A stretch of DNA of 64,000 nucleotides, from the NCBI RefSeq assembly GCF_003334765.1, contig NZ_QOWT01000021.1; one strand, 5' to 3'. The position numbers and the translations under genes were made by a program. Of this stretch, positions 3,203 to 13,705 are shown in pieces; the first letter of the stretch is position 1; each line of letters starts with the position of its first letter. The DNA comes from Escherichia coli. GTDB lineage: Bacteria > Pseudomonadota > Gammaproteobacteria > Enterobacterales > Enterobacteriaceae. The notes under the pieces are model-generated. The model worked only from the letters and a program-made list of their open reading frames with translations, was not told the origin of the DNA and did no database searches.

Positions 3203-5648
<2,446 letters not shown>

Positions 5649-5689
5649 TGACCTCTGTACTTATAACAACAACGTAAGGTTATTGCGCT

Positions 5690-6088
5690 ATGCAAACACA
5701 AATCAAAGTTCGTGGATATCATCTCGACGTTTACCAGCACGTCAACAACGCCCGCTACCTTGAATTTCTCGAAGAAGCCCGCTGGGATGGGTTGGAAAAT
5801 AGCGACAGTTTTCAGTGGATGACGGCCCATAACATCGCCTTCGTCGTGGTCAATATCAATATTAACTATCGTCGCCCAGCGGTATTAAGTGACCTGTTAA
5901 CTATTACCAGTCAGTTGCAGCAATTAAACGGTAAAAGCGGCATCTTAAGCCAGGTCATTACACTGGAGCCGGAAGGGCAGGTGGTAGCGGATGCGCTTAT
6001 TACGTTTGTTTGTATTGATCTTAAAACGCAGAAAGCATTAGCTCTGGAAGGGGAATTGCGCGAAAAGCTGGAGCAGATGGTTAAGTAA
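5690..6088 (+). CDS. fadM: Long-chain acyl-CoA thioesterase III, hotdog fold (132 aa)
   Basis: Sequence MQTQIKVRGYHLDVYQHVNNARYLEFLEEARW typical of the 4HBT/YbgC family; synteny. Confidence 0.93.
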   Translation: MQTQIKVRGYHLDVYQHVNNARYLEFLEEARWDGLENSDSFQWMTAHNIAFVVVNININYRRPAVLSDLLTITSQLQQLNGKSGILSQVITLEPEGQVVADALITFVCIDLKTQKALALEGELREKLEQMVK

Positions 6089-6139
6089 ACGTTTTGTGGT
6101 GCCGGATGCTCAAGCCGCATCCGGCGACACCCGGAATAA

Positions 6140-6835
6140 TTACCTCAACCCGGTTTTCTGCTTCATCGCTGCCATCACCGTCGGTTTATCGGCCAGATAA
6201 TGATTCAAACCGTTGGCGCGTAAATTACATGCCGCACAATGACCGCAACCGTCGCCTTTAAAGCCGTTATAGCAGGTCAACGTTTCGTTACGGACTAAAT
6301 CCAGTTTGCCGTAATAATCTGCCAGCGCCCAGGTTTCCGCTTTATCAATCCACATCAGCGGCGTTTCAAAACGAATATCTTTCGCCATGCCCAAACTGAC
6401 GGCATGGTTTAGTGCTTTCACAAACTCATCGCGGCAATCCGGGTAGCCGGAGAAATCCGTTTCGCAGACGCCAGTAATTACGGCTTCTGCTTTTACCTGA
6501 TACGCATATATTGCCGCCAGCGTCAGGAACAAAATATTACGCCCTGGGACAAACGTATTCGGGATACCATCGGCTTCAGGTTCATAATCAGGCACCGGAA
6601 TGCTGTCACGCGTCAGGCTACTGACCGCCAGCTCGTTGAGCAGGGTGACATCCAGCACCTTATGCGCGCGTGCCCCCAGTTTCAGCGCCAGTTCGCGTGC
6701 CACGTCGATTTCTGCGCGATGCCGCTGACCGTAATCGAACGTCACGCAATGGACTTCATCATATTGTTGTAATGCCTGCACCAGACAGGTGGTGGAATCC
6801 TGACCTCCACTGAACACAACGACAGCACGTTTCAT
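6140..6835 (-). CDS. queC: 7-cyano-7-deazaguanine synthase QueC (231 aa)
   Basis: PP-loop SGGQDS at the N-terminus and C-terminal Zn-binding cysteines CGHCAAC. Confidence 0.95.
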
Positions 6836-6899
6836 AGATAATCCTGCTTGAACAATAAAAGCGTTATGGTAACGCCTGCGATTAACCCGGACCAGCTAT

Positions 6900-8600
6900 T
6901 CATTGCGATGGCGCGGGAAGCCAGGCTTCGGTAAATTCAAACCAGCCGCGCGGTGTCAGTCGCACACCGTTCACGCCGGGAGGGGCACTAATGCGATAGT
7001 GATAGTTGAACAGCGGCGTCAGCGTCGCATCTGTCATTAACTGGCTAAAAACCGCTTTCAGGGCATTAAATCGGTTTTCTTCATCAGGCATTATTTGCAC
7101 GGCATCCAGTGTCGATTGTAGATGTGCGTATGCTGGAGCGTCGAAAACATGTGGCCACAGCGGATCGCAGCGCAGCCATTGCTCCAGAGTATATTCCGGT
7201 GCTTCGCCAATTAATCTGTCGCCCATCATGAGGTCTGCGTGTGCCTGTAGGGTCGTGTCGTCCCAGTTTTTTGCGTTATGAAAAATAATTGTGAGTTCAC
7301 AGCCTTCCGCTGCCAGTGTCGCCTGTAGGCGTTCTGCCATGGTATGAAGTTCTATCGGTAGGTGATAAACCAGCGTCAAGGTTTTCGGTAGTTTGACTTC
7401 ATCCGGTACCTGCCAATGCGGAATAGTCCAGCCTGGCAGTAATGCATGACTGGCGGTGATCAGGTTTTCTCCGACTTCTAACGTTTGTAATAAACCGGAT
7501 TGATGAATAATGGAGATCACTTTTCGCGCCTGCCAGAGGGAGAGTCGGGGACTTTTGCGCAACGTCAAATAGCAAAAACCTAAACTGATGCCGCTACTGA
7601 CCTGGCTGACCCGTTGCAGCTCCTCCGGTTTGCCGATGGTGATTTGCACGGGATGCCGACAACTGGTTCCCAAATCTTTTTCGAAAAGCGGCGGAGTTAT
7701 CCAGTACTCAACCGCTTTAAGCAGCGGATGACGTAAATGGTAATAATCATGGCTTTCCAGGCGCACCAGCTCTGCTGTGAATTGTGTTAAGCGAAAAGGA
7801 CCCGTGCCGATCAGTGGGAATTGCGGATGCGCCAGATGGCTGCAATAGCTCGCCAGCCGGTGCGCAAGCCAGTAATCAGGGCGATGTAAAAAGAAGGTCA
7901 GACACTGCGGATGGGTGACTTCAATACGCTTCACGCTAATAAATAATTGATCCAGTGCTGGCAGTTGTAACAGCATCAATAATCGCTGGTGTAAGTGTGA
8001 GGCTTTTACTGCATCGCCGTTATGCCAGTGTAGGGTTGAACGAAGATAAAAGTCCCAGCGTAACCCGTCAGTAGAGGTTTCCCAGTGATGCGCTAAATCG
8101 CCAATCGGGCGCTGAGTATTATTATCGAAGCGGGTCAGGCCGGAAAATATCTGCCCGGCGAGATGCTGCTCGGCACGGCCGGGCAAAAAGCCTGGTTGTA
8201 GCGGTTCGAGCGGGCGATAGTAGGGAATACGCAACGTGGGTGTATCGTTTTGCCATTGTCCGCCCATAAACGGCTGTAACAGAGTGCGCAGCTCACCTGG
8301 GGCCAGTTGCGCCAGCTCCAGCACATCTTGCTGCTTTCCGGTTTCCAGTGCCTGTTCCATCATCGCATTGCGTAGCGATTCCGGCGTGACCAGAAAGCGT
8401 AATTGTCCGCGCTTTCCGCGTCCTGACTGCGCCTGCCACTCCAGCCATCCCGCCTCCTGTGCCTGACGCAACAGCGTACGAACATGGCGTTCGCTGCAAA
8501 AACAGCGTTCGGCCAGTTCGCTGACGGTGACGGTTTGCGGCTTTCCGGCGGAAGGTTGCCACAGACGTTGATACTGGTTAAGACGGTTGAGCAATCGCAT
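6900..8600 (-). CDS. ybaE: SgrR-like protein: N-terminal winged-HTH plus solute-binding-protein-like domain (566 aa)
   Basis: Track ORF starts at a TTG; first ATG at 8598-8600 gives MRLLNRLNQYQRLW. HTH-like segment VTVSELAERCFCSERHVRTLLRQAQEAGWL. Confidence 0.9.
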   Translation of the reverse strand: MRLLNRLNQYQRLWQPSAGKPQTVTVSELAERCFCSERHVRTLLRQAQEAGWLEWQAQSGRGKRGQLRFLVTPESLRNAMMEQALETGKQQDVLELAQLAPGELRTLLQPFMGGQWQNDTPTLRIPYYRPLEPLQPGFLPGRAEQHLAGQIFSGLTRFDNNTQRPIGDLAHHWETSTDGLRWDFYLRSTLHWHNGDAVKASHLHQRLLMLLQLPALDQLFISVKRIEVTHPQCLTFFLHRPDYWLAHRLASYCSHLAHPQFPLIGTGPFRLTQFTAELVRLESHDYYHLRHPLLKAVEYWITPPLFEKDLGTSCRHPVQITIGKPEELQRVSQVSSGISLGFCYLTLRKSPRLSLWQARKVISIIHQSGLLQTLEVGENLITASHALLPGWTIPHWQVPDEVKLPKTLTLVYHLPIELHTMAERLQATLAAEGCELTIIFHNAKNWDDTTLQAHADLMMGDRLIGEAPEYTLEQWLRCDPLWPHVFDAPAYAHLQSTLDAVQIMPDEENRFNALKAVFSQLMTDATLTPLFNYHYRISAPPGVNGVRLTPRGWFEFTEAWLPAPSQ

Positions 8601-8699
8601 ATAAACCCGGAACAATATTATTTAACTATTCACTATTACTTCCGTATATATCAGGTGATACTCAATCACCATTAACCGTGTCACAGAGTGGAGAAAGAA

Positions 8700-9518
8700 A
8701 TGGCTCGTCTGGCAGCATTTGATATGGATGGCACTTTATTGATGCCTGACCATCATTTAGGTGAGAAAACCCTCTCTACTTTGGCGCGACTGCGTGAACG
8801 CGACATTACCCTCACTTTTGCCACGGGGCGTCATGCGCTGGAGATGCAGCATATTCTCGGGGCGCTATCGCTGGATGCGTATTTGATTACCGGCAACGGA
8901 ACGCGCGTGCATTCTCTGGAAGGTGAACTTTTACATCGTGATGATTTACCTGCGGATGTCGCGGAGCTGGTGCTGTATCAGCAATGGGATACCCGAGCCA
9001 GCATGCATATCTTCAATGACGACGGTTGGTTTACCGGGAAAGAGATCCCTGCGTTGTTGCAGGCATTTGTCTATAGCGGTTTTCGTTATCAGATAATCGA
9101 TGTCAAAAAAATGCCACTCGGCAGCGTCACCAAGATCTGCTTCTGTGGCGATCACGACGATCTTACACGCTTGCAGATCCAGCTATACGAAGCATTAGGC
9201 GAGCGTGCACATTTGTGTTTTTCCGCCACGGATTGCCTCGAAGTGCTGCCGGTGGGCTGCAATAAAGGCGCTGCATTGACGGTGCTGACCCAACATTTAG
9301 GTTTATCGTTGCGCGATTGCATGGCCTTTGGTGATGCGATGAACGATCGCGAAATGTTAGTCAGCGTCGGTAGCGGATTTATTATGGGCAATGCGATGCC
9401 GCAACTGCGCGCGGAGCTCCCGCATTTACCGGTGATTGGACATTGCCGAAATCAGGCTGTCTCTCACTATTTGACGCACTGGCTGGACTATCCACATCTA
9501 CCTTATTCCCCCGAATAA
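8700..9518 (+). CDS. cof: HAD-family HMP-PP phosphatase Cof (272 aa)
   Basis: HAD motif I FDMDGTLL near the N-terminus; start set at ATG 8700 ([14 protein letters not shown]); the track used GTG 8688. Confidence 0.92.
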
Positions 9519-9670
9519 CGAGATCCCTTCCAGCACCGGGCAATTGCCCGGTTTTTTTTGCGTTGAATTTGTCATTTTGTGCCGTGGTGTTTAAACCGCA
9601 CAGAATAAATTGTCGTGATTTCACCTTTAAAATAAAATTAAAAGAGAAAAAAATTCTCTGTGGAAGGGCT

Positions 9671-10129
9671 ATGTTAGATAAAATTGACCGTAAGCTGCTG
9701 GCCTTACTGCAGCAGGATTGCACCCTCTCTTTGCAGGCACTGGCTGAAGCCGTTAATCTGACAACCACCCCTTGCTGGAAGCGCCTGAAACGGCTGGAGG
9801 ACGACGGTATCCTTATCGGCAAAGTCGCCCTGCTGGATCCGGAAAAAATAGGCCTCGGCCTGACCGCTTTTGTGCTGATAAAAACGCAACATCACAGCAG
9901 CGAATGGTATTGCCGCTTTGTCACGGTGGTTACCGAAATGCCAGAAGTGCTGGGGTTCTGGCGCATGGCTGGTGAATACGATTATCTGATGCGCGTCCAG
10001 GTTGCCGACATGAAACGCTACGACGAGTTTTGTAAGCGTCTGGTAAACAGCGTGCCGGGGCTGTCGGACGTCACTTCCAGCTTCGCGATGGAACAGATTA
10101 AATACACCACTTCTTTACCCATCGAATAA
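9671..10129 (+). CDS. decR: Lrp/AsnC-family transcriptional regulator (152 aa)
   Basis: Track ORF is over-extended; ATG at 9671 gives [16 protein letters not shown], the typical Lrp/AsnC HTH N-terminus, with a RAM domain C-terminal. Confidence 0.92.
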
Positions 10130-10158
10130 ATATCCAGAATCAGGTCAGGACACAACGC

Positions 10159-13705
<3,547 letters not shown>

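Follow-up and report, generated by a model that had tools for sequence, protein, structure and literature searches.

In a 64,000-nucleotide stretch of Escherichia coli DNA (contig NZ_QOWT01000021.1 of assembly GCF_003334765.1), which we call the window and whose positions are used throughout, the gene of the SgrR-family protein YbaE lies divergent from cof, which encodes a phosphatase. The spacer between the two genes carries a near-invariant block of three boxes, and the same box layout is found in the promoter of sgrS, where SgrR acts as activator. On balance, these comparisons favor a reading in which YbaE binds Boxes 1 to 3 of the block and controls cof, probably as a ligand-dependent activator, and in which cof itself, rather than a hidden small RNA (sRNA), is the likely target. 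The conserved block, the placing of a monocistronic cof start at 8671 from two published maps, the three-box pattern that the block has in common with the sgrS promoter, the confinement of insertions to the ybaE side of the block and the nearness of Cof to the phosphatase YigL are new to this analysis.

An SgrR paralog divergent from cof

The region from 6000 to 10200 is E. coli chromosome, with a megablast match in 5425 of 5426 complete genomes, and the annotation gives the gene order fadM, queC, ybaE, cof, decR, mdlA. The two genes considered here and the spacer that separates them are as follows.

ybaE coding sequence: 6900-8600, minus strand; ATG start, protein beginning MRLLNRL..., 566 amino acids; in the list of open reading frames (ORFs) and in RefSeq.
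cof coding sequence: 8700-9518, plus strand; protein beginning MARLAAF..., 272 amino acids; phosphatase of the thiamin pyrimidine pyrophosphate HMP-PP, a Cof-type HAD-IIB hydrolase.
Divergent ybaE/cof spacer: 8601-8699, exactly 99 bp.

The same calls for ybaE and cof stand in the RefSeq annotation of identical E. coli DNA. A first, sequence-only reading of this DNA had placed ybaE divergent from cof with about 99 bp (8601-8699) between them, and the ORF list and the sequence itself make that figure exact. We rejected a longer ybaE ORF from TTG 8615 as the conserved start, because other species carry insertions or deletions that are not multiples of three between the ATG at 8600 and the conserved block.

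Both of the domains by which the SgrR family is recognized are found in YbaE: SgrR_N (PF12793), a winged helix-turn-helix, at residues 7-119 (E 5e-39), and SBP_bac_5 (PF00496), which resembles family-5 solute-binding proteins, at residues 165-303 (E 1e-16). These Pfam matches bear out the SgrR architecture that the sequence-only reading had assigned to the protein. In PDB and NCBIfam the matches are to binding proteins of the DppA/OppA/NikA type, and a structure search with YbaE returned binding-protein domains, with no SgrR-family structure among the matches. Against the NCBIfam SgrR equivalog model YbaE scores 231.9 bits, where the cut-off is 476, and its identity to SgrR is 27%; since it falls below the equivalog cut-off, YbaE is a paralog and not SgrR itself. 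The DNA-binding domains of the two proteins are 43% identical and have in common a CSxRHxRTLL recognition helix and a GRGKR wing, whereas the C-terminal (ligand) domains are only 24% identical. The N-terminus of YbaE is the DNA-binding domain and holds no signal-peptide-like hydrophobic stretch, and the protein is therefore cytoplasmic.

The RefSeq entry for MG1655 is labeled 'uncharacterized protein YbaE', and those parts of the literature available to us that mention ybaE give no function for it; to that extent, the statement of the sequence-only reading that YbaE has no known target holds. Horler and Vanderpool (2009) listed YbaE as of 'unknown function' in Clade 2 of the SgrR homologs and proposed that the genes divergent from sgrR homologs are their targets, so that the idea of a divergent target did not originate with the sequence-only reading. 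Up-regulation of ybaE has been reported under carbon limitation and in one biofilm regime. In a 2025 study (PMC12147183), a screen for resistance to a lacritin-derived peptide picked out a ybaE knockout among its hits, and YbaE was described as periplasmic or outer-membrane, a location that is unlikely because of the N-terminal DNA-binding domain and the lack of a signal peptide.

Altered forms of the gene also occur, and some E. coli strains have a disrupted ybaE (H1, NZ_OW968288.1; L019; proteins P0022 and P0023). An IS4-like ISVsa5 element is inserted in the gene of one, the YbaE protein match in L019 stops at residue 447, and an N-terminally truncated form of 444 amino acids that lacks the DNA-binding domain represents 305 member sequences; ybaE seems to be dispensable in some lineages. 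One assembly has a predicted protein of 818 amino acids (P0002) in which QueC, SgrR_N and SBP_bac_5 stand together, probably because ybaE and queC were fused by read-through or a frameshift.

A near-invariant block in the spacer

One genome per species was scanned, which gave 74 loci, and 51 orthologous spacers were aligned for column conservation. All Enterobacteriaceae and Erwiniaceae orthologs (56-95% identity) preserve the order queC-ybaE / cof-decR, and where the spacer could be measured (60 orthologous loci) it is 97-103 bp long in most. Within the spacer, 8603-8662 forms a near-invariant block, which about 65 orthologous loci of these two families retain, down to 46% YbaE identity; it is present in the 46%-identical ortholog (L077) as well as in Pantoea and another Enterobacterales genome, where YbaE identity is 52-55%. 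The block contains three boxes.

Box 1: 8603-8613, plus strand; AAACCCGGAAC; -68 to -58 relative to the cof start; all 11 columns at least 98% conserved (51 sequences).
Box 2: 8627-8638, plus strand; TATTCACTATTA; conserved core over the cof -35 region.
Box 3: 8639-8649, plus strand; (C/G)TTCCGTATAT.

Boxes 2 and 3 form a single conserved run at 8627-8649, which reads TATTCACTATTA[C/G]TTCCGTATAT. Further conserved columns are CA at 8652-8653 and ATACT at 8658-8662, the five ATACT columns all at 1.00 in the 51 spacers, and conservation collapses 3' of 8662. An inverted repeat is embedded in the block, with CGGAAC at 8608-8613 in Box 1 and GTTCCG at 8639-8644 in Box 3 (CTTCCG in E. coli), and the centers of its arms lie 31 bp, or about three helical turns, apart. 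We propose that Box 1 is the distal and Box 3 the proximal YbaE half-site. As a control, synonymous sites in the flanking genes are largely randomized: over the first 60 codons of ybaE and of cof, the major allele at third positions has an average frequency of 0.58-0.61, and only 4-6 of these 60 columns reach 0.95. BLAST of the block in E. coli matched the ybaE/cof site and no other. A palindrome in E. coli, GGTGAT-N5-ATCACC (8654-8670), was considered as an operator and set aside as lineage-specific because its right arm is not conserved outside Escherichia.

The positions of insertions bear on which gene the block serves. Spacers exceed 115 bp in 14 loci. Wherever Box 1 is present in these, the additional 20-275 bp always fall between that box and the ybaE ATG. 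The remainder of the block stays at a constant distance, about 95 nt, from the cof ATG. The insertions fall only on the ybaE side of the block, which argues that the block functions with the cof promoter; and since they separate the ybaE ATG from Box 1, Box 1 is not the ribosome-binding region of ybaE. In four Citrobacter loci (L006, L009, L017 and L047), the extra, partly shared sequence (about 100-275 bp) upstream of the ybaE start, between the ATG and Box 1, includes segments such as ...CCCAGTCACATACTGG...CACTTGCCGCCTCGA... that recur in several species, and it looks like a small repeat or mobile insertion.

Three of the loci probably come from mislabeled or contaminated assemblies. These are a 245-bp contig named 'Methylobacterium organophilum' that is 99% identical to E. 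coli ybaE (L074), a 'Chryseobacterium sp.' contig with an enterobacterial fadM-queC-ybaE-cof-decR (L066), and a 'Citrobacter freundii' locus (L056) whose YbaE is 65% identical to that of E. coli, compared with 79-82% for the other Citrobacter loci.

The cof promoter and its mapped start

The conserved block extends into the cof promoter, whose elements, together with the end of the transcription unit, are listed here.

cof -10 hexamer: 8657-8662, plus strand; GATACT; ATACT invariant except for GATAGT in two Pantoea loci.
cof -35 candidate: 8635-8640, plus strand; ATTACT; the sole candidate, weak, 3/6 match.
cof transcription start: 8671, plus strand; an A, 8 nt 3' of GATACT, giving a 29-nt 5' untranslated region (UTR).
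cof 5' UTR: 8671-8699, plus strand; Shine-Dalgarno GGAG at 8690-8693; poorly conserved and unstructured.
Weak second start: 8624, plus strand; score 2.0; candidate promoter TTGAGC-18-AACAAT, whose -10 overlaps Box 1.
cof intrinsic terminator: 9535-9562, plus strand; G+C-rich hairpin followed by a T-run.

Both starts were placed from published maps. The Cappable-seq data of Ettwiller et al. (2016), from which the plus-strand starts were used, give starts at U00096.2 466607 (score 4.2) and 466560 (score 2.0). We placed these in the window with an offset of 457,936, which is the unique optimum of 2,400 offsets tried on the 52 plus-strand starts within the window: at this offset 46 of the 52 starts fall on a purine and 23 lie behind TANNNT, where the background gives 25.9 and 2.6 on average. 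SMRT-Cappable-seq (Yan et al., 2018) gives a full-length monocistronic transcript of b0446 (cof) with its start at 467382 in U00096.3. This is the same start as 8671, because cof lies at 467412 and the table carries a systematic one-base shift that is also seen at the hupB starts.

The basal signal at the cof start is low, at 4.2 as against 814 for hupB, and in combination with the poor -35 (ATTACT) it fits an activator-dependent promoter. At the weaker upstream start, A8624 is invariant across the aligned spacers, and a protein bound at Box 1 would occlude its promoter. On the opposite strand, Box 2 holds a candidate ybaE -10, AATAGT (8637 to 8632), as part of a candidate ybaE promoter, GTATCA-18-AATAGT (8661 to 8632), that overlaps both the cof -10 and Box 2; from this -10, ybaE transcription would be predicted to begin near 8625. 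As to the start of ybaE, the SMRT-Cappable-seq list contains no b0445 transcript.

A layout in common with the sgrS promoter

We compared the cof promoter with the sgrR-sgrS spacer of E. coli and with three Pantoea/Erwinia sgrR loci. Read from the start codon of the regulator in the direction of the target, three elements correspond.

GGAAC box: sgrS -61 to -57; cof -62 to -58.
CC[CG]TATAT box: sgrS -27 to -20; cof -29 to -22 (in Box 3).
-10 hexamer: sgrS [AG]ATAAT, with GATACT in L072; cof GATACT.

Written as GGAAC-N27-30-CCSTATAT-N5-8-RATAMT, the pattern has one match in the 64-kb window (8609-8662) and none in 100 shuffles. Across the 89 fetched loci (about 800 kb), it occurs only in ybaE/cof spacers (62 loci) and, in E. 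coli and two Pantoea/Erwinia genomes, in the spacer between sgrR and sgrS. The bare pattern GGAAC-N24-30-TTCC was rejected as a specific signal, with two matches in the window against about three expected, and is uninformative alone. The flanks of the half-sites differ consistently by clade, with CCCGGAACA for YbaE and RGGAACTC for SgrR. Upstream of alaC, a gene reported in the literature to be activated by SgrR, stands GAGGAACTC, which matches sgrS Box 1 at 9 of 10 positions. In a third clade (L079), a perfect, GGAAC-containing inverted repeat, AACAGGAACA-N22-TGTTCCTGTT, has the same spacing of about 32 bp.

The ybaE/cof locus thus resembles the SgrR/sgrS system (sgrST-setA) in several respects: in both, a two-domain regulator stands divergent from its presumed target over a short spacer, one three-box pattern fits both the cof and the sgrS promoter, and the pathway ends in a Cof-type HAD-IIB phosphatase, which is YigL for SgrR and, by prediction, Cof for YbaE. 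The two systems differ in that the divergent target beside ybaE is a protein-coding mRNA with a 29-nt leader and not an sRNA, and in that regulation and binding by YbaE are predicted from sequence.

In the other SgrR-family clades as well (Clades 3-7 of Horler and Vanderpool, 2009), the divergent neighbor is the expected target; relatives that are 31-39% identical to YbaE differ in that they adjoin oxidoreductases, a phosphotransferase system (PTS) EIIBC gene or chaperone-usher fimbrial clusters, and not cof. The fimbrial clusters, on the metagenome and genome contigs L081/L084 and L083, contain the closest non-orthologous SgrR-family proteins (31-37% identity), and one cluster has two tandem SgrR-family genes followed by a GerE/LuxR regulator. 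We know of no earlier link between the SgrR family and fimbriae.

Cof and YigL

Among the Cof/YigL/YbiV HAD-IIB phosphatases, Cof is an HMP-PP phosphatase equivalog and a member of the Cof subfamily, scoring 554 bits against NCBIfam NF011705 (cut-off 336) and 209 bits against TIGR00099 (cut-off 137). Its second-best NCBIfam family is YigL, at 222 bits. YigL is a HAD phosphatase that SgrS up-regulates via its mRNA; its control is post-transcriptional, whereas the prediction for cof is control at the promoter. Neither the annotation nor the literature searched describes a transcriptional regulator of cof. Paralogous regulators (SgrR and YbaE) appear paired with paralogous phosphatases (YigL and Cof).

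Both E. coli SgrR-family genes also adjoin thiamin-related genes, sgrR lying directly upstream of a thiamin pyrophosphate (TPP) riboswitch and thiB (L076, 1-2433) and ybaE lying beside cof. The product of thiB is the thiamin transporter, and that of cof the thiamin pyrimidine pyrophosphate phosphatase. Horler and Vanderpool (2009) saw no functional link for thiB, and the thiamin-gene neighborhood of sgrR and ybaE may be a coincidence.

A model for control of cof, and its alternatives

We infer that YbaE is the protein that binds the conserved block, and we take the sign of regulation, autoregulation and the dependence on a ligand by analogy from SgrR. In this model YbaE would be a cytoplasmic, ligand-sensing transcription factor of the SgrR family with cof as its dedicated local target. 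Its winged-helix domains would bind two GGAAC-type half-sites about three turns apart, in Box 1 (8603-8613) and Box 3 (8639-8649), which together span -68 to -22 of a cof promoter with a weak -35, a -10 at 8657-8662 and a start at 8671. With the solute-binding-like domain occupied, YbaE would activate cof, as SgrR does at sgrS, and it would probably also limit its own overlapping divergent promoter. The output would be more Cof, a HAD-IIB phosphatase that hydrolyzes HMP-PP and other phospho-metabolites. In other words, the predicted circuit would be a direct, sRNA-free counterpart of the route from SgrR through SgrS to YigL.

A broader version of this model is one that we put forward only tentatively. 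YbaE and Cof might constitute a second, sRNA-independent phospho-metabolite stress circuit, paralogous to SgrR-SgrS-YigL, in which YbaE senses the build-up of a phosphorylated metabolite with its binding-protein-like domain and directly induces Cof to dephosphorylate it, and GGAAC-N(about 26)-GTTCC with its three-turn spacing might be a general recognition mode of the enterobacterial SgrR family. Candidate ligands for such a circuit are HMP-PP, a toxic pyrimidine analog (bacimethrin-derived HMP-PP), pyridoxal phosphate (PLP) and a sugar phosphate.

Several points weigh against control of cof by YbaE. The literature searched yielded no YbaE binding, reporter or knockout expression data. The three-box pattern was drawn up after both promoters had been seen, and the cof and sgrS promoter regions, aligned globally, show no significant similarity relative to shuffles (p 0.07-0.87). 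We therefore rejected overall homology of the two regions and claim only a common box layout and spacing. Nor was a GGAAC repeat found upstream of several more distant SgrR-family members that we examined. Part of the conservation of the block may come from two overlapping core promoters, and an operator over the -35/spacer region is compatible with repression as well as with activation. As to the gene pair itself, ybaE and cof lie within a larger syntenic block, fadM-queC-ybaE-cof-decR, in every genome found, so that their adjacency alone proves little, and no genome that has cof and lacks ybaE came to light: in both Erwiniaceae candidates ybaE proved to be next to cof. Synteny is thus consistent with a link between the two genes, and we rejected it as decisive evidence; relatives below 40% identity have other neighbors.

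The best surviving alternative reverses the sign of control. YbaE would then be a repressor that sits over the -35/spacer region of cof and over the weak upstream promoter at Box 1 until its ligand releases it. In its favor, the positions from -44 to -22 relative to the cof start fall within Boxes 2 and 3, the promoter of the 8624 start has a -10 that Box 1 overlaps, and SgrR reportedly represses its own promoter from the same region. However, the layout matches that of an SgrR-activated promoter box for box, and a poor -35 with low basal expression would be unusual for a promoter that needs repression; we consider this reading unlikely.

A second alternative, which we regard as less likely still, takes the block to be two overlapping divergent core promoters together with a site for some other factor, either SgrR or a global regulator, and places the targets of YbaE elsewhere. 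The candidate ybaE promoter does overlap the cof -10 and Box 2, the recognition helices of SgrR and YbaE are nearly identical, so that cross-talk is conceivable, and the bare GGAAC-N-TTCC pattern is not rare, with about three occurrences expected per 64 kb. Against this, no other part of the block is as invariant as Box 1, which stands 45 bp upstream of the cof -10 and is no core element of that promoter; the block is single-copy in E. coli at the level of BLAST and always stands beside ybaE; and the half-site flanks differ consistently between the YbaE and SgrR clades.

The last alternative, that an unannotated sRNA in the spacer or the cof leader is the true target of YbaE, as sgrS is for SgrR, could draw on that analogy and on the weak extra plus-strand start at 8624. 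We rejected both an sRNA and a riboswitch here. The main start is only 29 nt from the cof ATG, its leader is the least conserved part of the spacer, and the long-read transcript from 8671 covers cof. No terminator was found between the cof start and the cof end, the first being at 9535, after the stop codon; an Rfam scan of 5000-11000 gave no match even at E<=1; and the folds of the leader and of both spacer strands were no better than those of shuffles (z-scores -0.9 to +0.3). With a short, variable leader and no Rfam match, terminator or non-random fold, a hidden sRNA is very unlikely. The sequence-only reading had offered either a local regulatory module or a small leader transcript; the second half of that proposal is not supported by these results, while the first, a local regulatory module at ybaE/cof, is supported by the conserved block, the sgrS-like layout and the published start-site evidence.

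Flanking transcription units

Downstream of ybaE, queC (6140-6835) has its own start about 25 nt 5' of its ATG (SMRT-Cappable-seq, b0444 at 465572).

ybaE-queC spacer: 6836-6899, minus strand; 64 bp; holds the queC start at about 6860-6861.

Because this start lies inside the spacer, queC is independent of read-through from ybaE, and its promoter must fall within the 3' end of ybaE. The queC start is overlapped by a hairpin (6877-6859). On the other side of cof, upstream of decR, a promoter-like TTGTCG-17-TAAAAT (9610-9645, plus strand) has its end 7 nt ahead of 9645, where Cappable-seq places a start 26 nt 5' of the decR ATG; stronger starts lie within decR at 9692 and 9767.

Implications for YbaE and the SgrR family

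YbaE is among the remaining uncharacterized transcription factors of E. coli K-12, and the analysis turns this orphan regulator into a precise prediction: an operator at 8603-8649, a promoter with its start at 8671, cof as the single likely target and activation as the likely mode. A ybaE/cof module is unsurprising in kind, and it opens the function of a long-standing y-gene to direct test. If the prediction is correct, it would establish a direct transcriptional counterpart of the SgrR-SgrS-YigL pathway. The SgrR family would gain a defined DNA recognition motif, the literature that we accessed giving no consensus site, and a cof reporter would provide a handle for finding the ligands of sensors derived from binding proteins. 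It would also link the housekeeping of thiamin pyrimidine or of phospho-metabolites to a dedicated sensor.

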